NCBI GenBank assembly: GCA_963677595.1
Contig: OY782041.1
Span: 2,496,001-2,560,000 of the forward strand
Origin: Spirochaetia bacterium
GTDB taxonomy: Bacteria; Spirochaetota; Spirochaetia; CAKZLE01
DNA length: 64,000 nt
Reading direction: 5' to 3'
Positions within the stretch are counted from its first letter, which is position 1; every line of letters starts with the position of its first letter. The position numbers and the translations under genes are program-made. Positions 29,031-45,404 of this stretch are shown piece after piece. The notes beneath the pieces were generated by a model. It did no database searches. It saw only the letters and a program-made list of their open reading frames with translations, and was not told where the DNA came from.

Positions 29031-30005
29031 ATGAGAGCTGAACGGATCGTCATGATTACCGGATTCTCCATCCTGATCGCGACTGTGTCGCAGCTCTATA
29101 TCTTCAGCGGTATAGAATCCTTTCGCCATCATTGGCTCTTTTCCCTGGTGAAGCTCCTCATGTTCGCCGCATTCGCCTATGAAGTAGTCCTCGATGCAGC
29201 AAGCGAATACCATACCGTACTCTCCCCACGATACTTCTGGAACCAGGAGGCACTCCTCGAAGGCGCGGCCGTGGTCCTCGGGGCTGTCGTCACCTTCTTC
29301 GTCAGCATAGAGATCGGGCATGGCGGGGTGATCGCATCGGCGATCGTGGGGCTGACAACAGCTGTCCTCTTCCCGCAGCTCGCTGCCGCTGCCTACTGCG
29401 GCTCCTTCGTGGGCATGGCTTCGACGGTGGTCTTCCCCACCTATGAGGAACTCCTGCTGGCAGGGGTCCTCTCTGCGGTGTTCTTCGTCATCACGAAACC
29501 CGCCTGCAAGGGCTTCGGGGGGAAGCTCGGGACCATAGCCTTCGCAGGCACGATCCTGTCGATCACGATCCTGGGTTCGGAGGTCACCGGCGGGATCGTA
29601 CCGGACCTGGAGCTGGGTATCTCCCTGGTGTTCCTCTCCATGGCAGGAGCCTATCTCACTTATCTGGTGAACGTGATCCTCGGCCATGGGCCGGTCATCG
29701 CATCAGCGCTCATAGGCCTGCTCGCAGGACTCGTGCTGCCGGCCATCTATGGTCCTGACACCGGCACGACACTTGCCCTCATGGTCTTCTGCGCTTCGTT
29801 CGCCGGCATGAGCAGCCGGGAGCGAATACGTTCCTGGTATTACATCCTCGCTGCAGGAGCGCTGTCAGCACTCATCTTCATCTTCTCGATGCCCTACATG
29901 GGCGGGGCAGGGGGTAAGATGGGTACGACAGCGTTCGGTGCAGTCATCTCCATCGTCGGCATTGAGAGATTGGCGATGAAGTTCACTTCCTCAACCGCTC
30001 GATGA
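29031..30005 (+). CDS. Hypothetical membrane protein with an internal duplication
   Basis: Two repeats of (Y/F)C(G/A)SF.GM.S ... G.GGK(L/M)GT.AF; stop codon lies inside the 32-bp repeat. Confidence 0.75.
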   Translation: MRAERIVMITGFSILIATVSQLYIFSGIESFRHHWLFSLVKLLMFAAFAYEVVLDAASEYHTVLSPRYFWNQEALLEGAAVVLGAVVTFFVSIEIGHGGVIASAIVGLTTAVLFPQLAAAAYCGSFVGMASTVVFPTYEELLLAGVLSAVFFVITKPACKGFGGKLGTIAFAGTILSITILGSEVTGGIVPDLELGISLVFLSMAGAYLTYLVNVILGHGPVIASALIGLLAGLVLPAIYGPDTGTTLALMVFCASFAGMSSRERIRSWYYILAAGALSALIFIFSMPYMGGAGGKMGTTAFGAVISIVGIERLAMKFTSSTAR

Positions 30006-30176: not shown

Positions 30177-30249
30177 TTGCTTTATTCGTGATCGCGTACT
30201 AGTATCATGTCAACAAGACAACAGGTTATCAAGTTATCATACCAGTTGT
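30177..30249 (+). promoter_or_regulatory. Candidate island promoter and FadR/GntR-type operator region
   Basis: TTGCTT-N17-TAGTAT followed by an imperfect inverted repeat ACAACAGGT...ACCAGTTGT. Confidence 0.4.
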
Positions 30250-30268: not shown

Positions 30269-30712
30269 GTGGCAGAAGAGATGTTTCTTATGAAATGGCC
30301 GGAACTGGGTAAGCAGGTCAGATTGAGAAAGATTGAACACAATACGGAAGTATTTGATTGGTTCATGGATAATTTACCCACTAGTGGGATTCAGAGTCAT
30401 ACGGTAGTTGCGGGGTATGCCCTTACCTGTATGAGCCTTCCCGTCAAGAAACCATTCACCTACCGGTTTGCCGACCTGAAACAGGAGAACCTCGTTCCCC
30501 TGAAGAAGGGCCGATTCATCCTGAACATGACAATCGGTAATGTCATCAACTATGCGGTGAAATGGGGCGAGATGACAGAGCCTATGGCGTATCCTTCTTG
30601 GGCGGAAGTCGTCGATGAGGATATGGATACGCTGATCGAAGTAGGGAAGATCATCTGGCATAACATCGTGAATGAGAAGAAGATCATTCATGTTGAATAC
30701 GAGAAGGCGTGA
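30269..30712 (+). CDS. McbB/cucumopine-synthase-like N-terminal domain protein, copy 1
   Basis: KWPELG..V, LPTSGIQSHTVVAG, AVKWGEMTE, VVDEDMDTL.EVGK.IW; paralog of 31240-31686; GTG start after GGAGG. Confidence 0.72.
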   Translation: MAEEMFLMKWPELGKQVRLRKIEHNTEVFDWFMDNLPTSGIQSHTVVAGYALTCMSLPVKKPFTYRFADLKQENLVPLKKGRFILNMTIGNVINYAVKWGEMTEPMAYPSWAEVVDEDMDTLIEVGKIIWHNIVNEKKIIHVEYEKA

Positions 30713-30721
30713 GGTGTGACT

Positions 30722-31225
30722 ATGTGGAAAGATGTAAAAGCCGAGATAGATGCTGAGAACGAGAGACTGAGGTTCGAGGCTCCGGAAGATGTTGTGAAGG
30801 TAGTCCACCTTCGAGTGATCGATAGTGAATCGGGAACGGAGAAGATCCCCATGGGGAATTGGTTCTTCTCATTCTCCGATATCAGGTACGTAGGGGCTTA
30901 CCTCTACCAGATCATGAACCTGACCATGGATGATTCGTACTCCGTCGATCAGGCGAAGGAACTGGTATTCAAGATGATCTCACAGACCTCCGATTTTGCC
31001 GGATACTGCGGGTTCGTGACGCTCAGGACGTTTGTATTCAAGGCACTGGACGTGCTTGATGAGATAGACAACAAGGAAGACCTGTTCAGCCTGCTGAACT
31101 CAGTCTTCCTCTATGCCTCACACCTGCATACATGGATCAATAACTACTTCCCATGGAGTTATAACTACGCATTCCCGATCAGGACACCTGAAGATGTCGC
31201 TGATATGCAGAAATACGTGGACTAG
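30722..31225 (+). CDS. Cucumopine-synthase C-terminal helical bundle protein, copy 1
   Basis: EIDAE.ER..FE.PEDV, DIRYVG, DFAGYCGF..L, LLNSV.LYA..L.TW...YFPW. Confidence 0.75.
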   Translation: MWKDVKAEIDAENERLRFEAPEDVVKVVHLRVIDSESGTEKIPMGNWFFSFSDIRYVGAYLYQIMNLTMDDSYSVDQAKELVFKMISQTSDFAGYCGFVTLRTFVFKALDVLDEIDNKEDLFSLLNSVFLYASHLHTWINNYFPWSYNYAFPIRTPEDVADMQKYVD

Positions 31226-31239
31226 AAGGAGATAAGAGA

Positions 31240-31686
31240 ATGGCAGATTATTTCAAGATCAAATGGGAAAGTTTAGGGAAAGAGGTCCGCTGCAAAAAGA
31301 TAGAGCACAACCAGTTTATGTTCGACTGGTTCGAGGAGCAGCTTCCTGTCAAATCGATGCAGGGACATACCCTGGCCGCAGGCTGGGCGATCATGCACGT
31401 ATCAGTGCCGCTGAACAAGCCTGTCAACTGGGAGATGCGTACCGAAGTGACCGAGGTCATCGGGGAGCAGAACGAAGGTCGTGTGACCATGTTCATGGGT
31501 AACGGCACCTCCGCAGGCCTTGTCATCAAGTACGGCAGAATCACAGAGGATATGAGCTACCCGACCTTCGCGGAAGTCGTAGAAGAGGACCTGGGTATCC
31601 TGAAGGAAGTGGGTGCAGCCCAGTGGGAAGCGATACTCTATACAAAAGAGATCATTATTGCAGAGTTCTGCAAGGTAGAGGATTAA
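31240..31686 (+). CDS. McbB/cucumopine-synthase-like N-terminal domain protein, copy 2
   Basis: KIKWESLG, LPVKSMQGHTLAAG, VIKYGRITE, VVEEDLGILKEVG...WEA...TK. Confidence 0.75.
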   Translation: MADYFKIKWESLGKEVRCKKIEHNQFMFDWFEEQLPVKSMQGHTLAAGWAIMHVSVPLNKPVNWEMRTEVTEVIGEQNEGRVTMFMGNGTSAGLVIKYGRITEDMSYPTFAEVVEEDLGILKEVGAAQWEAILYTKEIIIAEFCKVED

Positions 31687-31690
31687 GCAT

Positions 31691-32203
31691 ATGGCAGATT
31701 GGAAAGTTGTTGCAGATAAGCTGACGGTTGCCGCTGAGAAGATACGGCTCGAACCGGATCATGATGTGGTCAAGACCATCAAATATGGACTGATTAATAC
31801 AGGAGCAGGGAACGGCGGTGCATTCAATGCCTGGGTGTTCGCATGCGGGGACGTCCGCCATGTAGGGGCATATTGCTATTACATCCTGTGGTTCGCAAAC
31901 CACTCCGAGGATTTCACCCTCGACCAGCTCAAGGACATGACCAGGCTCTGGCCAAGACAGCCTGCTGAGTTCGCTGCGTACTGCGGGTTCGATGAGCTCT
32001 GGGGATATATCCAGGAGATCGGCGAATGTCTGGACACCATCACCGAGAAGAGTGAACTCGTGGAACTGGTGAATGCACTCTGGGAGTATGCGAACCTCGT
32101 GAATGCATGGATCTATCAGTACATCCCGTGGGGTGCTTTCAAGATCGCACCGACAGTCACAAAAGAATTCTATAAGGAATCATTGGATTTCTTGAATAAA
32201 TAG
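31691..32203 (+). CDS. Cucumopine-synthase C-terminal helical bundle protein, copy 2
   Basis: GLINTGAG, FACGDVRHVG, TLDQLK..T, PAEFAAYCGFDELW, LVNALWEYANLVNAW...IPW. Confidence 0.78.
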   Translation: MADWKVVADKLTVAAEKIRLEPDHDVVKTIKYGLINTGAGNGGAFNAWVFACGDVRHVGAYCYYILWFANHSEDFTLDQLKDMTRLWPRQPAEFAAYCGFDELWGYIQEIGECLDTITEKSELVELVNALWEYANLVNAWIYQYIPWGAFKIAPTVTKEFYKESLDFLNK

Positions 32204-32217
32204 TTTGGAGGCAAACA

Positions 32218-33249
32218 ATGAGAAAGGGAAGAAACAGGATCGCTCTATTGGTTATGGTAGCACTGCTTGCAAGTTCCATGCTGTTCGCTGCAGGACAGAT
32301 TGAGACTAAAGAAGCTGTGGATGAACCCGTTCAGGTCATCTTTCGACTGGACTGGCTGCCAAGTGCATATCATGCTCCAGTGTTTGTAGCTGTTGAGAAC
32401 GGCTATTGGGAAGATGCAGGACTGGATGTAGAAGTGCAGTTCGGAAAGGGTTCAACTGATACTGCTAAGATGGTTGCAACAAAGCAGGCTGATTTCGGTT
32501 GGGCGAATACCGTAGTCACTACTCATGCGATCGAGACAGGTATGCCTTTGAAGACTATCTACGGTACCTACCAGAAGAACGCTCTTGGTGTCATGGTATT
32601 CAAGGATTCAGGTATCACTGATGCTTCACAGCTTGGAGGCAAGAAAGTGACTATGACAGGGTCTGGAGAAGAGGCAGTACTCTTCCCTCTCTGGATGGAA
32701 TTCAATGGTGTCGATTCTGAGAATGTAGACAGGGTCATAATCGAATCACGGGACACGAGAAGGGCGATGTTCCTGGAAGGTGAAGTCGACGCATACTGGG
32801 AGACCCTGTTCAGTAATATCCCGGTGCTGCAGGAACAGACAGATCGTGAGATCACTGGCATCATGATCAGCGATGGTGACCACCCGCTGAACCTCCTGCT
32901 GCAGGGACTTATTACCAACACTACAATGATCGAAGACAGCCCTGAGGTCGTGGAGGCTTTCGTTGCCGGTTTCAAGAAGGCTATTCAGTGGTCCATGGAT
33001 GATCCTGAAGGTGCGACTGACATCCTGATGAAGCTGGTACCTGAGATCCAGAACAGGGAGATCTCAATCGGGATCCTTGAGAATTCATTCAAGCTGTTCC
33101 AGACGAACAATTCTGAATCCATGGCCCTTGGGATGTACTCTGACAAGGACTGGGATGTGACTCTTGACCTCATGGTTGAGATGGGGAATCTGGAAACAAT
33201 CGATTCGTACGACAAGTACTACACGAATGAGTTCATTCCAGAGGATTAA
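32218..33249 (+). CDS. ABC transporter substrate-binding protein, NMT1/THI5-like
   Basis: Signal peptide; RLDWLP...HAP.FVA.E.GY.EDAGLDV....G.GS. Confidence 0.9.
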   Translation: MRKGRNRIALLVMVALLASSMLFAAGQIETKEAVDEPVQVIFRLDWLPSAYHAPVFVAVENGYWEDAGLDVEVQFGKGSTDTAKMVATKQADFGWANTVVTTHAIETGMPLKTIYGTYQKNALGVMVFKDSGITDASQLGGKKVTMTGSGEEAVLFPLWMEFNGVDSENVDRVIIESRDTRRAMFLEGEVDAYWETLFSNIPVLQEQTDREITGIMISDGDHPLNLLLQGLITNTTMIEDSPEVVEAFVAGFKKAIQWSMDDPEGATDILMKLVPEIQNREISIGILENSFKLFQTNNSESMALGMYSDKDWDVTLDLMVEMGNLETIDSYDKYYTNEFIPED

Positions 33250-33334
33250 TCTGATTCTATGATTACCCGCATGCTCCTGTTCGCAGGAGTATGGGGGATC
33301 TTCACTATTACGAAGAGGTTGAAGGACATTACAT

Positions 33335-34180
33335 ATGAGTGGAACCAATGTTGCAGAGAAAGAGCATAATGCAGTTATTGAGATTCAGAACCTTGGAATG
33401 ACGTATACAAGAAACAATCTTGAGCCGGTAACTGCAATCGAAGATATCCACCTGAGTGCTTCTGAAGGGGAGTTCGTATCCATTGTTGGTCCCAGCGGAT
33501 GTGGAAAGACGACGCTGCTCAGACTTGTATCCGGATTGCTGACTCCTACGAAGGGAGCAGTGAATATTCATGGACAACCAGTGACTGGTCCCAGCCGGAA
33601 TGTTGGTATGGTCTTTCAGCAGCCAATATTATTAGAATGGCGTTCGATCCTGGATAATATTCTCCTACCGATCGAGGTGAGAAAAGAGAACAAGAAAGAC
33701 TATCAGGAACAGGCTATGCAACTTCTTAAGTTATCAGGTCTGGATGGTTTCGGGAATAAGAGTCCTTTTGAGCTTTCAGGAGGAATGAAGCAGAGAGCCT
33801 GTATCTGCCGTGCTTTGATCGAGAACCCGGCAGTATTGCTGATGGATGAACCTTTTGGGGCTTTGGATGCATTTACCCGAGACCAGATGAATCTTGAATT
33901 ATTACGAATCTGGCGAGGGGAGAGTGATGCGTTCAAAGATGTTACGCACCACGCTAAGAAAACGATCATTTTCATTACCCATAGTATACAGGAAGCAGTA
34001 TTCCTCTCTGACAGGGTGATCGTCCTCTCGGCAAGACCTAGTAAAGTGATTAAGGAATATAAGATCCCGTTTGCACGACCAAGAACTGAAGAAGTTCTCA
34101 AGGAGCAGGAATTCGGTGAATTGGTATTTCAGATAACTGATGACATCAAAGCAAATTGTGGTCAGTTACTCTACTCATAA
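33335..34180 (+). CDS. ABC transporter ATPase (TauB/SsuB-like)
   Basis: GPSGCGKT, LSGGMKQR, LLMDEPFGALD, FITHS. Confidence 0.95.
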   Translation: MSGTNVAEKEHNAVIEIQNLGMTYTRNNLEPVTAIEDIHLSASEGEFVSIVGPSGCGKTTLLRLVSGLLTPTKGAVNIHGQPVTGPSRNVGMVFQQPILLEWRSILDNILLPIEVRKENKKDYQEQAMQLLKLSGLDGFGNKSPFELSGGMKQRACICRALIENPAVLLMDEPFGALDAFTRDQMNLELLRIWRGESDAFKDVTHHAKKTIIFITHSIQEAVFLSDRVIVLSARPSKVIKEYKIPFARPRTEEVLKEQEFGELVFQITDDIKANCGQLLYS

Positions 34181-34200
34181 CTTCTGATGGTTGGTGAAAA

Positions 34201-34965
34201 ATGATAAATAGAAACGAAACGATAAAATCGATACTGTACCCGATACTGTTCATTGTACTGTTGATCATTATCTGGCACTATGCTGTACGAATCTTTGAGA
34301 TTGCCGTCTATATACTTCCAGATCCGTATGATATTCCTGGTAATCTCGTTGACAACTTCGAGATTATCATGAACCATACGAAGATCACGTTATATGAGAC
34401 CTTCCTCGGGTTAGCACTCAGTATCGTGTTTGCAGTTTGCATCTCCGTACTGATTGTCAGTTCTGAGGTTGCTGATAAAGTTCTTATGCCGCTGATGATC
34501 CTATCACAGTCCTTCCCGAAAACAGCCATAGCCCCGCTCATGGTCATCTGGTTCGGGTATGATACCCTCCCTAAGATCATCATGAGTTTCCTCATAGGAT
34601 TCTTCCCGATAACCATGAACATGGTAATGGGTTTGCGATCCCCAAGCGAGGAGATGATGGATCTTATCAAGTCCCTTTCAGCTACGAAAGGGCAGATATT
34701 CATGAAAATGAGAATACCCGCTTCTATACCGTATTTCTTCAATGGGATCAAGATCTCTATTCCGATGTGTCTTGTCGGTGCAGTCGTCGGGGAGTTCGTC
34801 GGAGCTAATAAGGGACTTGGGTATGCGATTCTCATGGCTAATAACGAGTTCAACACCATCCTGGTATTCTCTTGCTTAGTCGTACTTTCCATCGTAGGTG
34901 CAGCATTGTATTTCCTGGCAGAGCGGCTCGAGAGGATGTCAGCTCCCTGGTACAAGAAGAACTAG
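34201..34965 (+). CDS. ABC transporter permease (TauC/SsuC-like)
   Basis: ILPDP, QSFPKTAIAPL..IWFG, GAVVGEFVG...GLG. Confidence 0.93.
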   Translation: MINRNETIKSILYPILFIVLLIIIWHYAVRIFEIAVYILPDPYDIPGNLVDNFEIIMNHTKITLYETFLGLALSIVFAVCISVLIVSSEVADKVLMPLMILSQSFPKTAIAPLMVIWFGYDTLPKIIMSFLIGFFPITMNMVMGLRSPSEEMMDLIKSLSATKGQIFMKMRIPASIPYFFNGIKISIPMCLVGAVVGEFVGANKGLGYAILMANNEFNTILVFSCLVVLSIVGAALYFLAERLERMSAPWYKKN

Positions 34966-35011
34966 AAGATCAACTATCCAGAATAATGAACTTTTTACAA
35001 GAGGTGTGTAT

Positions 35012-36010
35012 ATGAAGAAGTTTATGAATGATCCGATGAATTTCGTAAATGACATGATGTCAGGGATCATGTTGGCTCATGGGGACCTGTACAAACTGGC
35101 AGCCAATGACAGGAAGTGCCTGGTACGGAAAGAGACCCCTATTGAGGGGAAGGTTGCCATCGTCACGGGTGGAGGATCCGGTCATCTGCCGGTATTCCTC
35201 GGTTATGTTGGGGAAGGGCTTGCTGACGGCTGTGCCGTTGGGAACGTCTTTTCCTCACCGACTGCCCGACAGATCTATAAAGTTGCAAAAGCAGTCAGCG
35301 CCGATAAGGGAGTCCTCTTTCTCTACGGGATGTACCAGGGCGATATGATGAACTTCGATAAGGCTGCCGATATGGCACGGGAGGACGGCTTGACGGTCGA
35401 ATCCCTCAGGGTATCGGATGATGTAGCATCAGCACCCGCCGATCGTTGGCAGGAACGACGAGGTGTCGGTGGTATCTTCTTCGCCTATAAGATCGCAGGG
35501 GCGATAGCCAAGACGGGAGCTTCCCTGGATGAGGTCATTGAAGTCACGAAAAGGGCAATCACGAACATCCGTACGCTCGGTGTGGCGATTTCCTCCTGTA
35601 TCCTTCCCGCAATGGGGAAGGAGACCTTCGAGATCGAAGCGGACAAGATGGAGATCGGCATGGGGATCCATGGAGAATCGGGTGTCGAACGGGTGACTAT
35701 GAAGAGTTCGAAGGAGATCGCTTCCATCCTCGTGGATACTGTCTGTGAAGATGCCGGCCTGAAAGCCGGGGAAGAGGTCGCGGTTCTGGTGAACAGCCTT
35801 GGGGGCACACCGCTGGAAGAGCTCTATATCCTCTATGGGGACATCTACCCGCTGCTCGAGGCACGGGGATTGAAGGTCTATAAAAAGTACATAGACCGGT
35901 ATGCATGTTCTATGGAGATGCAGGGAGCATCCCTGAGCCTGATGCGCCTGGACCCGGAACTCAAGGAACTGCTTGATGCAGAAGCAGCTTCCCCGTTCCT
36001 GAACCTGTAA
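35012..36010 (+). CDS. dhaK: Dihydroxyacetone kinase family subunit K
   Basis: MKKFMNDP, GGGSGHLP, GNVFSSP, RRGVGG, GMGIHGE. Confidence 0.9.
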   Translation: MKKFMNDPMNFVNDMMSGIMLAHGDLYKLAANDRKCLVRKETPIEGKVAIVTGGGSGHLPVFLGYVGEGLADGCAVGNVFSSPTARQIYKVAKAVSADKGVLFLYGMYQGDMMNFDKAADMAREDGLTVESLRVSDDVASAPADRWQERRGVGGIFFAYKIAGAIAKTGASLDEVIEVTKRAITNIRTLGVAISSCILPAMGKETFEIEADKMEIGMGIHGESGVERVTMKSSKEIASILVDTVCEDAGLKAGEEVAVLVNSLGGTPLEELYILYGDIYPLLEARGLKVYKKYIDRYACSMEMQGASLSLMRLDPELKELLDAEAASPFLNL

Positions 36011-36024
36011 GGGGGGAGAAATCT

Positions 36025-36645
36025 ATGGATACGAACAAGATGACAGGCATGATACAGGCTGTATGTGAAGACCTGATCTCCCGGAAGGATGAGTTCTGCG
36101 AACTTGATGCAAAGGCAGGTGATGGGGACCTGGGAGTGACCCTCGTATATGGCTGCAGGGCAATCCTGGAATACCTTGAAGAGTATGACCTTGATGTGAT
36201 GACTCCCGGCGAGATCCTCGAAGGCTGTGGCGAGGCATTCGAGGAGAACACCGGATCCACATTATCGATCATCATCGCTGAGATGCTCTATGCAGCAGCG
36301 AAATCACTTGGGGAAAGTGAAGATCTCGGCAAAGCTTTGCTGGCAGCTGTAGACGGGGTGGCGAAACGGGGAAAAGTCACGATTGGTGACAAGACGATCT
36401 ATGACTCCCTCAAACCATCGGCTGATGCATACATGCTGCAGCAGAACTTGGGTGTGGATGTTGCGGCATGCCTGGAACACGCTGTTGAGGCTGCAACTGC
36501 CGGTATGGAGAGTACCAGGGGGATGAAGGCGAGGACCGGACGAGCAAGCTGGATGGGCGACGGGGTCGTCGAGCATGTCGATGCCGGGTCTGTCGTCTGG
36601 GTTCGGATACTAACGAAAATACAGGATCTTGTGATCCAGGATTAA
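36025..36645 (+). CDS. dhaL: Dihydroxyacetone kinase family subunit L
   Basis: LDAKAGDGDLG, GDKTIYD, GRASW, DAG. Confidence 0.88.
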   Translation: MDTNKMTGMIQAVCEDLISRKDEFCELDAKAGDGDLGVTLVYGCRAILEYLEEYDLDVMTPGEILEGCGEAFEENTGSTLSIIIAEMLYAAAKSLGESEDLGKALLAAVDGVAKRGKVTIGDKTIYDSLKPSADAYMLQQNLGVDVAACLEHAVEAATAGMESTRGMKARTGRASWMGDGVVEHVDAGSVVWVRILTKIQDLVIQD

Positions 36646-36672
36646 TACTATTTATTGATGAAAGGTGAATAT

Positions 36673-37773
36673 ATGTTCAAACTCGAAAACGTAGCACGTG
36701 ACTGTATCATGAAGAGTGATAAGTACATTCCGGGGAAACCCGTCGAAGAGGTTGAGAGGGAGTACGGGGTGAGCGACAGTATCAAGCTCGCTTCGAACGA
36801 GAACCCCTTCGGGGCATCACTCGTAGCGTTCAAGGCAATGGTGAAGGAACTGACGACCCATTCCCACCTCTATCCTGAAAGTTCAAGTTTTAAACTGAAG
36901 ATGGCCCTTGCGGAGAAGCATGCTGTCGACCCAGGAATGATACTGGTAGACAACGGCCTTGACGGCGTCATCAACACGTTCGGCATGACCTTCATAGATC
37001 CCGGTGACAAGGTGGTTACCTCCGATATCACATTTCCGGCTTATAAGAATATTACCACGAAGATGAACGGGAACCTCGTTGTGGTTCCCGCTGCCGATGA
37101 TCTCGGGTTCGATATCGACGGTATCCTTGAGGCTGCAGGGAGTGATGCGAAGATCATCTTCCTCTGTAACCCGAACAACCCGACGGGGAACATGATCGGG
37201 AAGGCAGATTTCGAGAGGATCATGAAAGCCGTGCCGGAGACGACCCTGGTCGTCTCTGACGAAGCCTATTTCGAGTTCGCAGTCGACGAGGAGTATCCCG
37301 ATACGATCTCATACCTGAACGAGTATCCTAACCTGGTCGTACTGAGGACGTTCTCGAAAATCATGGGACTAGCCGGGATCCGGGTCGGTTATATGATCGC
37401 TGATCCCAATATCGTAGAGGTCATGATGAAGGCGAGACTCCCGTTCCCGGTGAACAGGATCGCTGAGGCTGGGGCCCTTGCATCACTGACAGACCAGGAA
37501 TTCATAGAACGGGTCGTGACCCATACCGTCAGCGAACGGATATGGTTGAAGGAGCAGCTGGAAGCCATGGGGATGACTGCTGAAGAGAGTCATACGAACT
37601 TCCTCTTCGTGAAGCTGAACAGGCCAATGGGGACGCTGTATGAAGACCTGCTGCGAAAAGGGATCATCCTCCGACCAGTAGCCTATAACGGAGCTGACTA
37701 TTTCAGGATCACCATCGGGACGGCTGAAGAGAACAGGATCCTTCTCGACGGACTGAAGGATATCCTGGGGTAG
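36673..37773 (+). CDS. hisC: Histidinol-phosphate aminotransferase-like (aromatic aminotransferase) paralog
   Basis: YIPGKP, KLASNENPFG, CNPNNPTG, DEAYFEF, RTFSKIMGLAGIRVGY; not in a his operon. Confidence 0.85.
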   Translation: MFKLENVARDCIMKSDKYIPGKPVEEVEREYGVSDSIKLASNENPFGASLVAFKAMVKELTTHSHLYPESSSFKLKMALAEKHAVDPGMILVDNGLDGVINTFGMTFIDPGDKVVTSDITFPAYKNITTKMNGNLVVVPAADDLGFDIDGILEAAGSDAKIIFLCNPNNPTGNMIGKADFERIMKAVPETTLVVSDEAYFEFAVDEEYPDTISYLNEYPNLVVLRTFSKIMGLAGIRVGYMIADPNIVEVMMKARLPFPVNRIAEAGALASLTDQEFIERVVTHTVSERIWLKEQLEAMGMTAEESHTNFLFVKLNRPMGTLYEDLLRKGIILRPVAYNGADYFRITIGTAEENRILLDGLKDILG

Positions 37774-37794
37774 AAAGGAAGAAAGGGCTTGGGT

Positions 37795-39039
37795 ATGGAT
37801 TGCGATAGCGAGAGGATCAAAAGACGACTGGATGAGCTGTCCGGGTTCAATGCGACTCCTGGATGCGGTATAACCCGGTTCTCTTACAGCAGAGAGGACC
37901 GTGAAGCAAGGATCTATCTCATTGAACAGATGGAAGCGATCGGACTCTCGGTATCCATAGATGCTGTAGGCAATATCAGGGGAAGAATGGAGGGGACAGA
38001 CCCTCAGGCTCCCCCAGTCATCACCGGCTCCCATATCGATACCGTGTTTCACGGCGGCAAGTATGACGGTGCGGTTGGAGTCATCTGTGCCCTTGAGGTG
38101 CTGTCGGTCTTGAAGGACAAGAGCTTATCGGGGAAACACCCCGTGGAGATCATGATCTTCTCAGAGGAAGAGGGGTCGAACTTTGATTCCACCATGGCAG
38201 GCAGTAAGGCATTTGCTGGGAAGTATACCCTGGAAGACCTGAAGAAGATCCGGAACCGAGATGGGATGGCCATGTACACCATGCTGAAGGATGCAGGGTT
38301 CCACCCTGACAACCTTCCTGCGGAACAGGACGGGAGAGCCCCGATCAAGGCATTCATCGAGCTGCACGTCGAGCAGGGAGGAGTTCTTGATGCCGAGAAT
38401 CGTTCGATAGGTATAGTGAAGGGAATCAACGGCAGCCGGTGTTTGGAGATCATCGTGAAAGGCGAGGCCAACCATGCCGGGGCTACCCCTATGTATCTCA
38501 GGCGTGACCCTATGGTTGCCGCTGCCATGATCATTAGTGAGATAGACCAGGCAATGAGTAAGGATACTGATGCTACCACGGTTGCGACCGTAGGAAAGAT
38601 CCATGCATCCCCCGGGATCTCGAACTGCATTGCTGAAGAGGTGAGGTTCACCGTCGATGTCCGGGATATTGTGGAGAGCGGTATCGAGCGGGTCTGCAGG
38701 GCAATCGATACGACCACTGCCAGGGCTGAAGAACAGTATGGGGTGAAGGTCTCGCAGGGGATCCTCGCGGAATCGGATGTCGTGACCTTGTCTGACACGG
38801 TGATCTCCGTCCTCAAGGAGAAGGCAGAAACCCGGGGTGTCTCATACCGGTGCATGAACAGTGGTGCCGTCCATGATGCAGCAATGCTGGGCTCTCTCAC
38901 CGATGTAGGTATGATCTTCGTCCCGAGTATCAGGGGAAAGAGCCATGTCCCTGAAGAGGATACGAGGATCGAAGATATAACGTATGGGGCAGATCTCCTG
39001 CTGGAAGGCATCTGCGGACTAGCCGGGATAGAGATCTAG
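37795..39039 (+). CDS. Zn-dependent M20 amidohydrolase (N-carbamoyl-amino acid/allantoate amidohydrolase family)
   Basis: GSHIDTV..GGKYDG, EEEG, ELHVEQG, NHAGATPM, SGAVHDA, GKSH.PEE. Confidence 0.92.
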   Translation: MDCDSERIKRRLDELSGFNATPGCGITRFSYSREDREARIYLIEQMEAIGLSVSIDAVGNIRGRMEGTDPQAPPVITGSHIDTVFHGGKYDGAVGVICALEVLSVLKDKSLSGKHPVEIMIFSEEEGSNFDSTMAGSKAFAGKYTLEDLKKIRNRDGMAMYTMLKDAGFHPDNLPAEQDGRAPIKAFIELHVEQGGVLDAENRSIGIVKGINGSRCLEIIVKGEANHAGATPMYLRRDPMVAAAMIISEIDQAMSKDTDATTVATVGKIHASPGISNCIAEEVRFTVDVRDIVESGIERVCRAIDTTTARAEEQYGVKVSQGILAESDVVTLSDTVISVLKEKAETRGVSYRCMNSGAVHDAAMLGSLTDVGMIFVPSIRGKSHVPEEDTRIEDITYGADLLLEGICGLAGIEI

Positions 39040-39072
39040 ATCATATTACACAAACGATGTGAGAGGTGGACT

Positions 39073-40467
39073 ATGAAGAAGCTGATAACGAACGGGACAA
39101 TCATCACGGCGAAGGAAGAGTACCGTGCAGACCTGCTGATCGAGGACGGGAAGATCGTGAAGATCGGGAAGCAGCTGGAGGCAGAAGGCTCCGAGGTCGT
39201 GGATGCAGCCGGCTGCTACATCCTGCCCGGGGGCGTGGACCAGCACGTGCATTTCTCGTTCGAGTTCAACGGGACGAAGGTGCGGGGCTTCGAGACCTCG
39301 AACGCGGCAGCGCTCGGGGGGACGACGACGGTGATCGAGTTCGTGAACCAGATCCGCGGCAAGGGACTGCTCGAGTCGATCGAGGAGTACCGGAAGGAGC
39401 AGGTTGACGGGATCGCGCTGGTGGACTACAACCTGCATGGTATCATCACGGACCCGCGGGAAGAGGTCTTCGAGGAGATGGAGTCGCTGGTAGCGGCAGG
39501 GTATACGACGGTGAAGCTGTTCATGGCGTACAAGGGGATGTTCTTCCATGCGGATGACGATGCGATCCTGAAGGCGCTGAAGGCAGGGAAGAAAGCCGGT
39601 GTGACGATCATGGTGCATGCGGAGAACGCCGAGGCGATCGATGTGTTCCAGAAAGAACTCGTGGCAGCGGGAAAGACCGAACCCTACTCACATGTGTTAT
39701 CGCGGCCGCCGCTGGTGGAGGCAGAGGCGACGAGGAGGGCGATCTACCTGTCGCAGCTGGCCGATGCGCCGATCTACATCGTGCATGTATCGTGTACTGA
39801 GGCGGTGAACGAGGTGAAGAAAGCCTACACCTCAGGACTGCCGGTGCGGGGAGAGACCTGCTCGCACTACCTGGTGCTCGATGACAGCAAGCTGGCACTG
39901 CCGGACTTCGAGGGGGCGAAATATGTCTGCTCACCGGCACTGCGAAGCGCAGACCACCATGAGTCGCTGTGGGAAGCGATCGATATGGGCTGGCTGAACG
40001 CGGTGAGCTCGGACCACTGCGGGTTCGACTGGGCAGAACAGAAGCACATGGGGAAAGATTCCTTCGTGAACATCCCGAACGGGGCACCGGGGATGGAACA
40101 CCGGCTGGCGATCCTGTGGACCTACGGGGTGGAGACGGGACGGATCACGAAGCAGAAGCTGGTGGAACTGTTCGCGACGGAACCGGCGAGGAACACGGGG
40201 ATCGATTACTGCAAGGGGCATATAGCCATCGGCTATGATGCGGACCTGGTGGTGTTCGACCCGACATGGAAGGGCGTGATCACGAACGAGCGAAGCCTGC
40301 AGGGCGTGGACTACACGCCGTATGAGGGGATGGAGCAGATCGGACGGGTCGAGAAGGTCTTCCTGCGAGGCGAGCAGATCGTCGACGGCGGGGAGTATAT
40401 GGGAACGGCAGTGAAGGGAACGCACGTGAAGGGGAGACCCTTTGGTGCGACCTATAAGCAGAGATAA
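39073..40467 (+). CDS. hydA: Dihydropyrimidinase / D-hydantoinase
   Basis: PGGVDQHVH, KLFMAY, VHAEN, IVHVS, SDHC. Confidence 0.93.
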   Translation: MKKLITNGTIITAKEEYRADLLIEDGKIVKIGKQLEAEGSEVVDAAGCYILPGGVDQHVHFSFEFNGTKVRGFETSNAAALGGTTTVIEFVNQIRGKGLLESIEEYRKEQVDGIALVDYNLHGIITDPREEVFEEMESLVAAGYTTVKLFMAYKGMFFHADDDAILKALKAGKKAGVTIMVHAENAEAIDVFQKELVAAGKTEPYSHVLSRPPLVEAEATRRAIYLSQLADAPIYIVHVSCTEAVNEVKKAYTSGLPVRGETCSHYLVLDDSKLALPDFEGAKYVCSPALRSADHHESLWEAIDMGWLNAVSSDHCGFDWAEQKHMGKDSFVNIPNGAPGMEHRLAILWTYGVETGRITKQKLVELFATEPARNTGIDYCKGHIAIGYDADLVVFDPTWKGVITNERSLQGVDYTPYEGMEQIGRVEKVFLRGEQIVDGGEYMGTAVKGTHVKGRPFGATYKQR

Positions 40468-40497
40468 ACGACAACGTACAATACAGGAGAACAAGCA

Positions 40498-41319
40498 ATG
40501 GCAAAGATAACGGATCTGAAGGGGTACTGTTACCCGTTGAGCCCGGAAGGGAAGGCATCGCTGCTGGGGGACATGCCCTGGCACTACGGGACGGAGTACC
40601 TGAACATCGCATACAAGACGGATGCGGATGCGATCGCGAAGTGGATACCGGAGCCGCTGGAGCCGGGCCCGAACCCGGACACGGCCTACGTGGCATTCAG
40701 CAAGTGGTGGTCAGTATGGGATGACGCGAAGGACATGGCATACGTGAACCCGGAGCGGACGCAGTACACCGAGGCGGCGATCTGGGTAGGGTGTTCATAC
40801 AAGGGACAGCCGGCACAGATGTGTCTGTCGATCTGGGTGGACAATGACTTCACGATGGCACGGGGCTGGTTCATGGGCTTCCCGAAGAAGTTGGGATCGA
40901 TCAGTATCACGAGCTATAACGGGCTGAACCCGGGGATGAGCGAAGAGGGAGAGGGATCGATCCTCTCCGGGATCGTCTCCTCGCACGGGGAGCGGCTGAT
41001 CAAGGGTACGGCTACGCTGGAGCGGAAGATCGACCGGGCAGAGCTGCCGAAGCCGATGGGGCTGCCGATCTTCCACCTGCGGCAGTTCCCGAGCCTGGTG
41101 CCGGGCGCACAGCCGTCGGTACTGGAGATCGTGAAGCTGGGAGCGAAGGACTGGAACTGGGGCCCGGATGTCTGGGCCGGGAGCGGATCGCTTGAGTTCC
41201 TCCCCTCGGAGCTGGAGGAGCATATGCCGCTCAAGCCGAAGGAGATCATCGGATCCTACCGGTTCCGTAACGGGTACACCTTCGACGGCGGTGAGGTCGT
41301 CTACGACTACCTGAAATAA
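40498..41319 (+). CDS. Acetoacetate decarboxylase family protein
   Basis: P.SP.G.ASL....PWHY, Y.EA, WVDND..MARGW.MGFPKKLG (Schiff-base Lys region). Confidence 0.88.
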   Translation: MAKITDLKGYCYPLSPEGKASLLGDMPWHYGTEYLNIAYKTDADAIAKWIPEPLEPGPNPDTAYVAFSKWWSVWDDAKDMAYVNPERTQYTEAAIWVGCSYKGQPAQMCLSIWVDNDFTMARGWFMGFPKKLGSISITSYNGLNPGMSEEGEGSILSGIVSSHGERLIKGTATLERKIDRAELPKPMGLPIFHLRQFPSLVPGAQPSVLEIVKLGAKDWNWGPDVWAGSGSLEFLPSELEEHMPLKPKEIIGSYRFRNGYTFDGGEVVYDYLK

Positions 41320-41351
41320 GGGGAACGTCAACAATACTTGCTAATAGCAAT

Positions 41352-41392
41352 TGTGTGCATCCTGTAAAAGAGTGGGGGATGCACACAGTTTT
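41352..41392 (+). terminator. Intrinsic terminator ending the island operon
   Basis: TGTGTGCATCC...GGATGCACACA stem followed by GTTTT. Confidence 0.7.
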
Positions 41393-41537
41393 GGAATGTA
41401 CACCATATAACACAGGATATCGTATCAAAACATATATAAATAGCATATTACGTTCTGTATTGGTTGCATTCTGTGGTATGATATCTGTATAATTGCTGGT
41501 TAAGAAGTGTGTAGATGCAGCAGTGAAGGTATAGTAT

Positions 41538-42263
41538 ATGAATGATATCCATAAAGGCGAATATAACAGCAGTCTCCTATCTCCCATAAACAGACCGAAG
41601 GTCACAGACCTGGTCGTGGAGAAGATCCTGGAACTGATTGAGAATAATACCCTGCTTCCCGGAGATAAACTCCCCTCACAGCGTGAACTTGAACGCCTGC
41701 TGAATGTCAGCCGTTCCACGCTGCGTGAGGCTCTGTCCGGTTTGATCATGACCGGGTATATAGAATCAAGGGTAGGTTCCGGGTTCTATGTGAAGGAACG
41801 GGAACCGGAGTACGGAGTAGATGGGGTCTCGGGAGAGGATCGTGATGAACTCGTACATTCGCTCTATGAAGCCAGGATCTATATCGAACCGATCCTTACC
41901 GGCCTGGCGGCAAAACGTGCAACAGATGAAGAGATAGCAAGTCTCTATAAGATCGTCGCTGATATCGAAGAGGCTCTTCCTTCCGAGGAGGCGATGCTCA
42001 TCGGGCTGCAGCTTCACCAGAGGATCGGCGAAGTGGCGGGGAATCCCTTCCTGGCTGATGTCGAGAAGAAGCTACTCAATGAGTTCAGCCGATTCATCCT
42101 CCATGTGTTCGATGACCCGGTCCTTTCAGACAAGGAACTCAACCTCCATATGGAGATCGTGAAAGCTATCGAGTCACATGATGTGCAGAAGGCAAGGCAG
42201 ATCGCTTTCGACCATATAAATAGTTTCGCTGAGGATCACGGCATAGAACTGGCTGGTTTCTAA
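41538..42263 (+). CDS. FadR/GntR family regulator
   Basis: PGDKLPSQREL...LNVSRSTLREAL...G.I....GSG; FCD-like C-terminus. Confidence 0.93.
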   Translation: MNDIHKGEYNSSLLSPINRPKVTDLVVEKILELIENNTLLPGDKLPSQRELERLLNVSRSTLREALSGLIMTGYIESRVGSGFYVKEREPEYGVDGVSGEDRDELVHSLYEARIYIEPILTGLAAKRATDEEIASLYKIVADIEEALPSEEAMLIGLQLHQRIGEVAGNPFLADVEKKLLNEFSRFILHVFDDPVLSDKELNLHMEIVKAIESHDVQKARQIAFDHINSFAEDHGIELAGF

Positions 42264-42678: not shown

Positions 42679-44238
42679 TTACTGCTTCAGGTCGCCGACC
42701 GCCTTCACCCTGATCCTGGTCGCGTTGCCGGGCAGGTAGGCAAGGGGAATATCCTCTACCTCCACGATCCTGATGGTATCAGGGGCTGCGCCGGCCTTGG
42801 CGGCCTCTTCGGTAGCGATCCTCTTAGCATCAGCGACCGCATCATCACGGGACATGGTATCAAGGGAGTAGACCCGTTCGATCTGGCCGCTGACCTGGGC
42901 GATAGCCGCACCGAGGGCGTTCGCGACCCCGAAGTTCTCCGGGCGGATGATCTGTTCGGTCCCGGAGATCTCATCACTGATCAGCAGGGAGCCTCCCCCT
43001 ACCAGTACGAGGGGTACCGGGTCCTTCGTGAGCTTCATCGAGTCGATCCCGTTCTGCACCAGCTGCATCATAGCCTCATGCGCTGCCTTCGCGGTATCGA
43101 GCGGTATACCCTCCACCCTGGACGGGTCCCCGAGTTCCGCCATGCCGAGGCGTACCGCGATGTCGGTAGCTGTCATGGTGGACCCGCCGAAGACCATGGC
43201 CTCTTCGGTGATCCGATAGCCGACGCTGTCAGGGCCGACGGTGATGCCATCTTCTGTCTCCCTGATGATCGTCCCGCCCCCGAGCCCGAGGGAGTTGAGG
43301 TCCGGCATCCTGAAATTCGTCCGTGCCCCGCCGATCTCGACAGCCAGGGAGGACTCCCGCGGGAAGCCCTGCCTGATGACGCCGACATCGCTGGTGGTCC
43401 CCCCGACATCAAGCACCATGGCATCCTCATAGCCGCTGAGGAACGATGCCCCGCGGATACTGTTCGTAGGCCCGCAGGCAATGGTAAGGATCGGGTATTC
43501 GATCGAATAGTCGATACTCATCAGCGTCCCGTCATTCTGGCAGAGGTAGACCTTCGCGGCAGTCACTCCCTCATCCTGCAGGGCCTTCCTGAACCCGAGT
43601 GCGGTAGACCTCGCGACCTTGTTGAGTGCGGCATTGAGGATGGCGGCATTCTCTCGTTCCAGCAGGCCGATGGAGGCGATCTCATGCGACTTGGTCACCG
43701 GGATATCCTCCCCGAGGATCTCCCGTGCCATCTCGGCGGCACGGTCCTCGTGGTCGTAGGATACCGGAGAGAAGATCGAGGTGATCGACAGCGCTTCCAC
43801 CGATCCCTTCATGGACTCCAGCGAGCTCCTTAGTTCCTGCTCATCAAGCGGGAAGATCTCCTTCCCGTTGAACTCGTGCCCGCCGGTTACGTGGTAGACC
43901 TGGCTGCTGACCGCAGCTATGAGGTCTTTAGGCCAGTCTATCATCGGTTCTATAGCCATACCGGCCGGTTTCCCGATCCTGATGACCCCGGTCTTGAGCA
44001 GCCGGCTCCTGGTGACGATCGCGTTGGTGGAATGGGTGGTGCCGAGCATGGCATAGGCAATATTCCCCCGGTCTATATCGATTTGGCCCAGGACCGAATG
44101 AAGGGCATCAAGGATCCCGTCGAACACATCCGTAGTGGTCGGCCGCTTGACCGAGGCTATGATATTCCGGTTATCGTCAACGATCACCGCGTCGGTGTTC
44201 GTCCCGCCGACATCTATACCGATTCTGTATTCCATCAT
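42679..44238 (-). CDS. Hydantoinase/oxoprolinase (HyuA-like) family protein
   Basis: IGIDVGGTNTD, GTTHSTNA, LERENAAILNA, GPTNSIRGA, DVGGTTSDVG, GLGGG; start overlaps the DUF917 stop. Confidence 0.92.
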   Translation of the reverse strand: MMEYRIGIDVGGTNTDAVIVDDNRNIIASVKRPTTTDVFDGILDALHSVLGQIDIDRGNIAYAMLGTTHSTNAIVTRSRLLKTGVIRIGKPAGMAIEPMIDWPKDLIAAVSSQVYHVTGGHEFNGKEIFPLDEQELRSSLESMKGSVEALSITSIFSPVSYDHEDRAAEMAREILGEDIPVTKSHEIASIGLLERENAAILNAALNKVARSTALGFRKALQDEGVTAAKVYLCQNDGTLMSIDYSIEYPILTIACGPTNSIRGASFLSGYEDAMVLDVGGTTSDVGVIRQGFPRESSLAVEIGGARTNFRMPDLNSLGLGGGTIIRETEDGITVGPDSVGYRITEEAMVFGGSTMTATDIAVRLGMAELGDPSRVEGIPLDTAKAAHEAMMQLVQNGIDSMKLTKDPVPLVLVGGGSLLISDEISGTEQIIRPENFGVANALGAAIAQVSGQIERVYSLDTMSRDDAVADAKRIATEEAAKAGAAPDTIRIVEVEDIPLAYLPGNATRIRVKAVGDLKQ

Positions 44239-45329
44239 TGGGCCTCCTGCTTCGCGGCGAGCTGCTCTATCGGTGTGTAATCGAGGTCGTACCCGAAGTA
44301 TCGCGGGCCGACCGTCTCGATCCCCTTCGGGGTCCTCCATTTCTGGTCACAGGGGATCCCGATGACCGCGACTCTCCTGCCGAACTTGAGGGTCTCGGTC
44401 GTCACGGGGATAGCCGTATCCACATCCAGGATGCAGATGAGGTCAGGTACTGATGCGACGACCTTTCCGTCCCGATGGGCGACCAGGTTCTCGTTCTGGA
44501 AGCTGACCTCCATCGACCCTCCGGTATACTCATCGATCCCGCTGAGTCTGCAGAGTCCCCGGTTGAAGCCCCCCTTGATGTCCCTGCTGACATCGGTGAT
44601 CTTTCCCTTGAATAGTTCATACCCCCGGGTGATCTCCAGCAGCTCCCCGATGGGGTTCGCATTGTCCTTCCGTGCATCGGCGATGACCCGGCCGATCTGC
44701 TCGGAGAAACTCATGATGCCTGCGATCCCTGAATCCTTGACCTGGGACCCCAGCATCGAGTAGATACTGATCATGACTGACGCTCCCATGGTGACCGTGC
44801 AGACCCGTGCGATCTCCTCAGCCCAGTTGTTGGAGATCGTCTGGAGGATCACGCTGTTCCCCTTCTCATCGACGATCACCATCGGGCTTGCCGGGATACC
44901 GTCAAGGTGGTAGGTAACCATCTGCAGCTCCGGGAAGGCCCGTCCCATCCCGTCCGCATCGACGAGGGGGATCCCGAGCTGTGCCGCAACGGCGATCGGT
45001 ATCATGGAATTGACCCCGCCGGCCTCGATGGGGATGGTCGCATAGACCTTCTTCCCGAGCACCTCCTCGAGTCCCTTGAACGCGGTGATGAACTCCTCCC
45101 CGTTGGGGATCTTCTCGATGATGACGATCGGTGCGCCCATCATGGCTGACGGGACGACCAGTGCATCATCAGGGAGTTCCTCAGGTGAGAGGAGTTGGAC
45201 CGGGCCGTACTTCCTGATGGCATTCAGGGCCATCAGCCGCCCGATATGGGGGTCTCCCCCGCCTCCTGTGCCAAGTAAAGACGCTCCAAGCGCTATATGC
45301 TCTATAGCCTGTTCGTCTAACAATCTCAT
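44235..45329 (-). CDS. DUF917 family protein (S-methyl-thiohydantoin desulfurase-like)
   Basis: LGTGGGGDP, MGAP...EK, IEAGGVNS, VDADGMGRAFPELQM, FQNENL, VPDLI. Confidence 0.9.
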   Translation of the reverse strand: MRLLDEQAIEHIALGASLLGTGGGGDPHIGRLMALNAIRKYGPVQLLSPEELPDDALVVPSAMMGAPIVIIEKIPNGEEFITAFKGLEEVLGKKVYATIPIEAGGVNSMIPIAVAAQLGIPLVDADGMGRAFPELQMVTYHLDGIPASPMVIVDEKGNSVILQTISNNWAEEIARVCTVTMGASVMISIYSMLGSQVKDSGIAGIMSFSEQIGRVIADARKDNANPIGELLEITRGYELFKGKITDVSRDIKGGFNRGLCRLSGIDEYTGGSMEVSFQNENLVAHRDGKVVASVPDLICILDVDTAIPVTTETLKFGRRVAVIGIPCDQKWRTPKGIETVGPRYFGYDLDYTPIEQLAAKQEAQ

Positions 45330-45404
45330 ATATGTTGCCTCCAAAAACACACGTGCAGGACTGCCTGCAGATGAGTCAGTCCTGCATTCGTATGGAATGA
45401 TCTC

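Follow-up and report, generated by a model that had tools for sequence, protein, structure and literature searches.

A doubled, two-piece member of the McbB/KslB fold at the head of a putative catabolic operon in a Spirochaetia bacterium

The 64,000-nucleotide stretch analyzed here (the window; contig OY782041.1 of assembly GCA_963677595.1, positions 2,496,001 to 2,560,000) comes from a Spirochaetia bacterium and contains an apparent operon that begins with four small genes, designated A1, B1, A2, and B2 (Table 1). Each of the four open reading frames (ORFs) has its own stop codon and a purine-rich stretch on its 5' side, and they are separated by gaps of 9, 14, and 4 bp. The order A1-B1-A2-B2, with paralogous A genes and paralogous B genes, had been read from the sequence in the original prediction, and it agrees with the ORF coordinates and with the pairwise comparisons (A1 and A2, 41% identity, E = 3e-39; B1 and B2, 32% identity, E = 2e-29). 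The same separate ORFs are found in the metagenomic loci L007/L008, L009, and L010 and in a second genome, G683, so the split is not an assembly artifact. A frameshift or pseudogene explanation was discarded, since other organisms have the same stops and the residues of the active site are intact. Contigs of three sequencing runs cover the region in pieces.

The A and B proteins are two diverged two-piece copies of the McbB/KslB/cucumopine-synthase fold. B1 and B2 score 54.7 and 72.6 bits against the Pfam family Cucumopine_C (PF18631; cut-off 27 bits), and A1 and A2 match no Pfam family. In phmmer searches, the barrel domains of AsKslB, KslB, and McbB are matched by both A2 (2e-11, 2.5e-6, and 2.9e-5, respectively) and A1 (1.2e-8, 5.3e-7, and 5.6e-4). 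The resemblance of A to the barrel domain and of B to the helical bundle had been proposed earlier, together with a Foldseek comparison to McbB and KslB. When this was run on AlphaFold models of A2 and B2 (predicted local distance difference test scores of 96 and 86.5), both matched. The top matches of A2 were KslB and McbB (query TM-score, TMq, 0.81-0.83) and that of B2 was McbB (TMq 0.76), with cyclophilin-like folds far behind. The atlas neighbors of the A barrel are DUF3830 clusters.

The catalytic glutamate of the fold is conserved, while the residues that bind ketoglutarate in KslB are not. KslB (PMC12012969) is a homodimer whose domain order is swapped relative to McbB; its Glu274 (Glu97 of McbB) is essential, as the E274Q variant is inactive, and Arg256 and Lys264, which are absent from McbB, hold the carboxylates of ketoglutarate. 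The cassettes of the window, L007/L008, L010, and G683 were aligned, giving eight A copies and eight B copies. Glu104 of A1 and Glu103 of A2 align with KslB Glu274, in keeping with the original claim that both A copies retain the McbB catalytic Glu, and the Thr-Glu pair is kept in all eight A copies, including six ortholog copies. The eight B copies all conserve KslB Phe46, Phe89, and Tyr92, and the carboxylate loop (KslB residues 223-226) reads VVAG and LAAG here versus VVSG in KslB. Arg256 is kept in none of the eight A copies, being Ile or Leu in the A1 group and Thr in the A2 group, and this makes a dicarboxylic keto acid an improbable carbonyl partner. Lys264 is not kept in A1 or A2 either (Val/Gly). 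The KslB His134 position is Asn in B1 and Tyr in B2, and the pair-specific differences at positions 256 and 134 are the same in every organism. An attempt to call the substrate from the pocket residues failed, as Phe89 occurs both in Trp enzymes and in the mikimopine-synthase homolog of plasmid pRi1724. The cassette belongs to the fold family but, judged by these residues, not to the ketoglutarate type, and Pictet-Spenglerase activity is at most predicted.

Stand-alone halves are common in this family. A profile of 12 A sequences, taken from split proteins and so biased toward stand-alone members, found 134 representatives: 78 stand alone (75 starting with Met, though some of these calls may come from genes cut at contig ends), 20 are fused in A-B order and 9 in B-A order, and the remaining 27 are fragments. 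The split state emphasized in the original prediction is real in that the ORFs are separate, but it is not unusual, given these numbers and a split pair on pRi1724. A quick tree, from a preliminary search, was made from 127 rows and 146 columns with Shimodaira-Hasegawa-like approximate likelihood ratio test (SH-aLRT) support only; matches with fewer than 110 aligned residues, KslB, and McbB were left out. A1 and A2 fall into two distinct ortholog groups, both within a clade of 37 rows (SH-aLRT 99) in which all rows are stand-alone and which lies apart from the opine synthases. Together with the constant differences between the pairs, the separate groups indicate that the duplication is old and maintained. 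The fused gene on the transferred DNA (T-DNA) side of pRi1724 branches from within a set of split pairs linked to importers, a hint that the synthases arose from catabolic enzymes and that the fused gene formed by fusion of a catabolic pair. Two very divergent fused-size proteins (L025:1063-1950 and L026:5852-6730) match the B profile weakly and lie near methyltransferase-like and molybdopterin oxidoreductase-like ORFs, as judged from the starts of those ORFs. Weak matches in two genomes, G651 (1.8e-4) and G731 (3e-5), are very divergent, fused-size, and in unrelated contexts, and they were not used.

The operon is patchy in distribution and was probably acquired, since PF18631 was found in none of five members of the same family and in none of a phylum sample of 400 further genomes, the window's own genome (G000) being the sole match. 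The GC content is 47-52% over 30-38 kb, where the operon lies, versus 56-61% in the flanks. A class-wide search with the B profile matched 5 of 401 genomes, the window's own included. None of 32 candidate viral contigs was confirmed, and a pattern scan of GTDB with the A alignment gave one locus with a 19-residue match that was judged spurious.

The doubled cassette recurs next to importer and kinase genes in other organisms. A metagenome scan yielded four loci (L007 to L010) from 217 candidates. L007 and L008 share 2002 bases without a difference and are counted as one organism, with the order sugar ATP-binding cassette (ABC) genes, DhaK, DhaL, a B2 fragment, A1-B1-A2-B2, another fragment, an ABC substrate-binding protein (SBP; 60% identity to that of the window), and an ATPase (63%). 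The near-identical 3' B2 fragments on both sides of the cassette (L007:8683-8962 and L008:2402-2749), one of which has an in-frame stop and a short A1 start fragment before it, are either a recent duplication or an assembly artifact. L010 has A1-B1-A2-B2 alone, and L009 has part of B1 followed by A2 and B2. On contig C98 of G683, one strand encodes a histidine ammonia-lyase, an allantoinase-like enzyme, A1-B1-A2-B2, an SBP (53%), an ATPase (56%), and a permease (56%), and further on FadR (42%), UbiX, a carbamoylase (33%), and UbiD; DhaK (54%) and DhaL are transcribed divergently, and there is no HisC gene on the contig. An importer relative and a Dak pair thus lie within about 4 kb of A1 in both other organisms with usable flanks. 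The recurrent linkage of split homologs to importers and catabolic enzymes, for which the original prediction had proposed a neighborhood survey, is seen in L007/L008 and G683. The DhaK proteins of the window and G683 group together (93/89 support), and each occurs besides a separate DhaK in the same genome. Overall the linked DhaK proteins belong to three lineages, so the link arose more than once.

The ammonia-lyase of G683 scores 528 bits as a histidine ammonia-lyase, to which it is much closer than to ergothionase (1.5e-97 versus 1.3e-52). It has Ser-His and Gln-Glu-Asp-His motifs, which we take to be marks of histidine specificity. This locus (L022:106-12397) combines the lyase with UbiD and UbiX in a genome in which no urocanase was found. 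By analogy with the routes that join tyrosine or phenylalanine ammonia-lyase to UbiD, urocanate could possibly be decarboxylated to vinylimidazole in G683.

The genes that follow the cassette in the window lie on the same strand with short gaps. The gaps from A1 through the gene for a protein of the acetoacetate decarboxylase (ADC) superfamily are 4-85 bp, and FadR follows after 218 bp and a hairpin. The families originally assigned (importer, DhaKL, HisC-like, carbamoylase, hydantoinase, ADC, and FadR) were confirmed, and the operon contains no tailoring or recognized export gene, as had also been said. A scan of the window for promoters and terminators gave counts that are not above those of shuffled sequences (8 versus 13.1 and 6 versus 7.5). 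The 10-mer shared within the window, found in an operator search, is not common to G683, where similar palindromes lie upstream of A1 and in the intergenic region between the ammonia-lyase and DhaK genes.

Table 1. Features of the cassette and the genes that follow it. Positions are those of the window.
Feature	Position	Strand	Remarks
A1, stand-alone barrel half of McbB/KslB fold	30269..30712	+	GTG start, 147 aa
B1, stand-alone helical-bundle half (PF18631)	30722..31225	+	167 aa; pocket Phe/Phe/Tyr kept
A2, second barrel half	31240..31686	+	148 aa
B2, second helical-bundle half	31691..32203	+	170 aa
NMT1/THI5-like ABC substrate-binding protein (SBP)	32218..33249	+	Close relatives after cassette in L008 and G683
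ABC ATPase, TauB/NtrD type	33335..34180	+	
ABC permease	34201..34965	+	
Dak1 (DhaK-like) kinase subunit	35012..36010	+	Groups with cassette-linked DhaK of G683
Dak2 (DhaL-like) kinase subunit	36025..36645	+	
HisC-family aminotransferase	36673..37773	+	Second paralog beside hisC near hisG
N-carbamoyl-amino-acid amidohydrolase, M20 hydantoinase/carbamoylase family	37795..39039	+	
Dihydropyrimidinase/D-hydantoinase family amidohydrolase	39073..40467	+	GC at third codon positions (GC3) 0.82, host-like
MppR/Sbi_00515-like ADC-superfamily protein	40498..41319	+	GC3 0.84, host-like; not conserved with cassette
Inverted repeat, 11-bp arms, 3' of ADC gene	41352..41387	.	Possible transcript end
FadR-subfamily GntR regulator	41538..42263	+	Relative after permease in G683
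10-mer, reverse complement at 41474-41483 upstream of FadR	30235..30244	.	Weak operator candidate, within reach of chance

Several of these proteins fall short of the closest functional models. DhaK and DhaL are below the equivalog cut-offs of TIGR02363 (357 versus 406 bits) and TIGR02365 (100 versus 138 bits), and by score they would form a Dak-family triose/tetrose kinase rather than the phosphoenolpyruvate-dependent DhaKLM system. The HisC-family aminotransferase, a second paralog, is likely catabolic. The ADC protein scores 153.5 bits versus 380 for the MppR equivalog TIGR04460 and is equally close to the Sbi_00515-type protein 4ZBO and to MppR (4JM3), and the Lys of its GFPK motif is kept. 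MppR acts on alpha-keto acids via a lysine (bioRxiv 2023.03.21.533663) and condenses pyruvate with imidazole-4-carboxaldehyde (PMC7820114); by analogy, such chemistry would fit a step after transamination. An ergothioneine-type pathway was rejected, as the hydantoinase and carbamoylase are below the ErtD and ErtE cut-offs and no urocanase-like gene was found. Beyond the operon, a convergent operon on the minus strand (42679-46694) encodes an NCS1 permease, an S-Me-THD-like (DUF917) protein, and a hydantoinase/oxoprolinase.

More distant relatives show a similar association with importers. G501 has a fused A-B gene (32% identity to A), followed on one strand by genes for a regulator, a tryptophanase/tyrosine phenol-lyase, a LIV importer, a short-chain dehydrogenase/reductase, and DhaKL, and this Dak1 gene is the only one in the G501 genome. 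The locus (L024:7385-10931, contig C88) is a candidate operon for the catabolism of Trp- or Tyr-sugar adducts. In G772 one split pair follows genes resembling tripartite ATP-independent periplasmic transporters, as read from ORF starts.

Plasmids of agrobacteria and other bacteria provide further precedents, with 15 plasmid records matching B2 and 13 matching A2. On pRi_26-59, two fused paralogs (A-B and B-A) lie among hutH/U/I/G/F/C, an oxoprolinase gene, and two ABC systems. They are divergently transcribed (L006:10516-12801), and the B-A copy is 88% identical to the T-DNA-side copy of pTiAg57. In the complete pRi2659 the hut region starts on the right-hand side of the T-DNA, and the T-DNA contains a copy of its own. 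On pRi1724, a split DUF3830 and PF18631-like pair (L011:10048-12932) is 54% and 40% identical to the halves of the neighboring fused gene, which is probably the mikimopine synthase from its place after rol-family genes; genes for an amino-acid ABC transporter and oxoprolinase come after the pair. Plasmid pHS1 of Sodalis praecaptivus has the same type of split pair with hutH and oxoprolinase. Opine catabolic genes usually adjoin the T region (PMC8087989), and a cucumopine catabolic region was defined by Hooykaas et al. 2022 (as cited in bioRxiv 2023.06.20.545721). On the symbiosis plasmid of Paraburkholderia phenoliruptrix, a cucumopine-synthase-like gene lies with hisZ/hisG, hisC, and a major facilitator superfamily (MFS) transporter gene (L005:6523-12834), possibly a histidine-opine synthesis locus on a nodulation plasmid. 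The pattern that recurs is a member of the fold with an importer and an enzyme that strips aromatic amino acids. A Dak kinase is added where Arg256 is missing (the window, L007, G683, and G501), and not in the pRi1724-type pairs or in G772.

The window differs from each of the known systems. KslB and AsKslB (9NS6, 9K0A, and 9UWA; Trp plus alpha-ketoglutarate) have the same barrel and bundle folds, and Glu274, Thr273, Phe46, Phe89, and Tyr92 are kept, but they are single-chain biosynthetic enzymes with bundle-barrel order and the Arg256/Lys264 pair, and the identity in Foldseek alignments is about 21-26%. McbB (3X27; Trp plus oxaloacetaldehyde/methylglyoxal) has the same barrel-then-bundle order, is the best match of B2 in sequence (7e-17) and in structure, and also lacks the Arg/Lys pair. 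However, McbB is fused, biosynthetic, and made of one kind of subunit, whereas the cassette has four separately encoded chains, two of each kind, within an operon that includes an importer. The pairs of pRi1724, Sinorhizobium medicae pMl1, and Sodalis pHS1 resemble it in having separate A and B, the Glu, and an adjoining importer and ring-opening hydrolase, with hutH too in Sodalis, and they are presumed catabolic. They are single pairs of another clade, with 24-32% identity, and they adjoin a polar amino-acid ABC system and oxoprolinase, in contrast to the NMT1-type ABC system, DhaKL, hydantoinase, and carbamoylase of the window. The pRi2659-type cucumopine region also has two diverged paralogs side by side outside the T-DNA with catabolic and importer genes, but both are fused and keep Arg256, and the region has a full hut set and no Dak kinase in the 24 kb examined. 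The histidine-opine clusters of Ri and Ti plasmids carry hutH/hutU and oxoprolinase, none of which is present in the window's operon.

The preferred explanation, held with middling confidence, is that the A/B enzymes free an aromatic amino acid and a C3 or C4 sugar from imported adducts by a retro-Pictet-Spengler reaction. The amino acid would probably be histidine or an analogue. The two barrel and two bundle halves likely assemble into two distinct active sites; the bacterial Pictet-Spenglerases are dimers in which two barrel-bundle units share the active sites between them. The NMT1-type ABC system would import a bicyclic adduct, and the catalytic Glu would protonate a ring carbon so that the C-C bond breaks to give an iminium, from which water would release the amino acid and the carbonyl compound. 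DhaKL would phosphorylate the sugar fragment and thereby pull an otherwise unfavorable equilibrium, and the HisC paralog (in G683, histidine ammonia-lyase) would take the amino nitrogen. Before or after cleavage, the hydantoinase and carbamoylase could remove a cyclic-ureide or carbamoyl group, much as oxoprolinase probably opens a lactam in the opine clusters. A reverse Pictet-Spengler reaction predicts just such a pattern, in which an adduct enters and a neighboring gene product consumes each of its two halves. The retro-Pictet-Spengler idea with the carbonyl fragment passing to DhaKL was already part of the original prediction; it is still the best explanation and is strengthened by the comparative loci.

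The presence of two pairs may be most simply explained if they handle the two ring-carbon epimers produced by non-enzymatic condensation. In a specific form of this conjecture, which is tentative and more doubtful than retro cleavage in general, A1B1 and A2B2 would each open one epimer of adducts between histidine or another aromatic amino acid and a triose or tetrose, formed spontaneously in decaying biomass. Alternatively, the four proteins could form an obligate A1B1A2B2 heterotetramer.

A number of observations weigh against retro-Pictet-Spengler catabolism. The forward Pictet-Spengler reaction is favored, and the words "reversib", "retro", and "reverse" do not occur in the AsKslB paper (PMC12547825). 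The pocket residues do not separate His from Trp. Urocanase was found in none of three genomes (G000, G683, and G501), and hutH, hutU, and hutG had no tblastn match in G000; histidine, once released, would have no Hut route by which to be degraded, and the gain would be limited to nitrogen and sugar unless the ring were of a non-standard kind. DhaM (TIGR02364) was not found in the window's genome. For the two-pair cassette, flanking DNA long enough to be of use comes from just two organisms other than that of the window. In one of them, L007, DhaK is part of a generic module of sugar-ABC and DhaKL genes that is carried unlinked in G000 (76% identity), so the link there may be chance and is weaker evidence. 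In G772 there is no Dak gene on the 8.7-kb contig of the split pair, and Dak1 is on another contig. Two counter-examples are the Paraburkholderia copy, which with its hisG/hisZ/hisC and MFS genes looks biosynthetic, and a Rhodococcus copy that follows peptidase genes. Finally, the hydantoinase and carbamoylase have no clear place in a scheme for a plain His-triose adduct.

These last two enzymes bring up an alternative that is unlikely but deserves serious consideration, namely that A/B is catabolic and the substrate is a ureide-bearing heterocycle, such as oxidized histidine or a pyrimidine- or purine-like amino-acid adduct. A retro-Mannich or C-N cleavage would then be followed by ring opening by the hydantoinase and carbamoylase. 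A cyclic amidohydrolase and a carbamoylase are present in the operons of both the window and G683, and the recurrence of such distant relatives (31% and 33% identical) suggests a ureide in the substrate and that the enzymes were recruited separately to meet one need. The SBP most closely resembles thiamine-precursor/pyrimidine binders, and the missing urocanase and the position of the window's clade apart from the opine synthases are also consistent with such a substrate. On the other hand, the amino-acid-binding enzymes have the same Glu, carboxylate-binding loop, and aromatic pocket, and the lyase of G683 is closest to ordinary histidine ammonia-lyases.

It is improbable, though conceivable, that the operon is a mosaic in which the cassette, importer, and regulator form one unit while the kinase, transaminase, amidohydrolase, and MppR-like genes, in part or altogether, act on other substrates. 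The hydantoinase and ADC genes have a GC3 of 0.82-0.84, versus 0.44-0.68 for the other 12 genes. The ADC protein had no match at E<=1e-40 in 400 other genomes of the class, it is absent from the G683 contig, as is HisC, and in a crude test on contigs of at least 6 kb none of 120 listed ADC relatives was matched to the contig of an A2/B2 relative. Its absence from the G683 contig and from the class genomes searched and its host-like GC3, shared with the hydantoinase, suggest that the ADC gene is probably a later addition; the original prediction listed it among the enzymes of the pathway, but it is not a conserved partner of the cassette. A contig of run X2 carries the hydantoinase and ADC genes (39073-41319) and runs into unlike sequence after 41318; the block may occur in another context too. 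The mosaic explanation is opposed by the 4-85 bp gaps on one strand from A1 to ADC, by the grouping of the two additional DhaK proteins of the window and G683, and by the recurrence of the amidohydrolase and carbamoylase in G683.

It is very improbable that the enzymes work in the forward direction, joining an amino acid from the cell or from outside to methylglyoxal or a reactive triose, whether to detoxify the carbonyl compound or to produce a metabolite. In favor of this, the characterized members in the papers covered are all synthases, McbB and its fungal relatives use methylglyoxal (PMC12536604), and a membrane protein of unknown family is encoded just upstream on the same strand. Against it, the importer, FadR, ammonia-lyase/tryptophanase, and kinase neighbors point to consumption, neither the window's operon nor the G683 contig has a tailoring or recognized export gene, and the upstream gene has a GC3 of 0.73 and a terminator-like hairpin after it. 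That gene (29031-30005) encodes a 324-aa protein with no Pfam match, and its atlas neighbors are unnamed clusters of 57-81 members from bacteria and archaea.

In the literature found, which is mostly open-access and does not include the Ri/Ti catabolic-region paper, no split or catabolic member of the fold is described. No literature was found on DUF3830 and none of relevance on the degradation of spinacine or tetrahydro-beta-carbolines. For retro-Pictet-Spengler enzymes in bacteria, the portions of literature found dealt only with fungal manzamine metabolism and acid chemistry.

The cassette is thus a real and conserved case of the McbB/KslB fold in two pieces and in doubled form, in what gene context marks as a catabolic setting, and split, importer-linked members are widespread, with precedent on long-sequenced Ri plasmids. 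The described members of the fold, in the papers covered, build rings; if the present enzymes open them, they would supply a missing C-C-cleaving step. They would then be the first enzymes of the fold shown to be catabolic and would provide a route for non-enzymatic amino-acid/sugar damage products, for which the literature searched describes no degradation route. The finding also bears on how strains with Ri plasmids use cucumopine and mikimopine as food; the homologs next to the synthases are the obvious candidates for this. It would also assign a role to a large family that lacks annotation (DUF3830-like barrel plus PF18631), among whose matches the stand-alone halves are more numerous than the fused proteins. 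With two pairs that are both conserved and diverged, the cassette offers a test case of stereo-complementary sites, which would be useful for biocatalysis. All four proteins are small, and no cofactor is needed by the known members.

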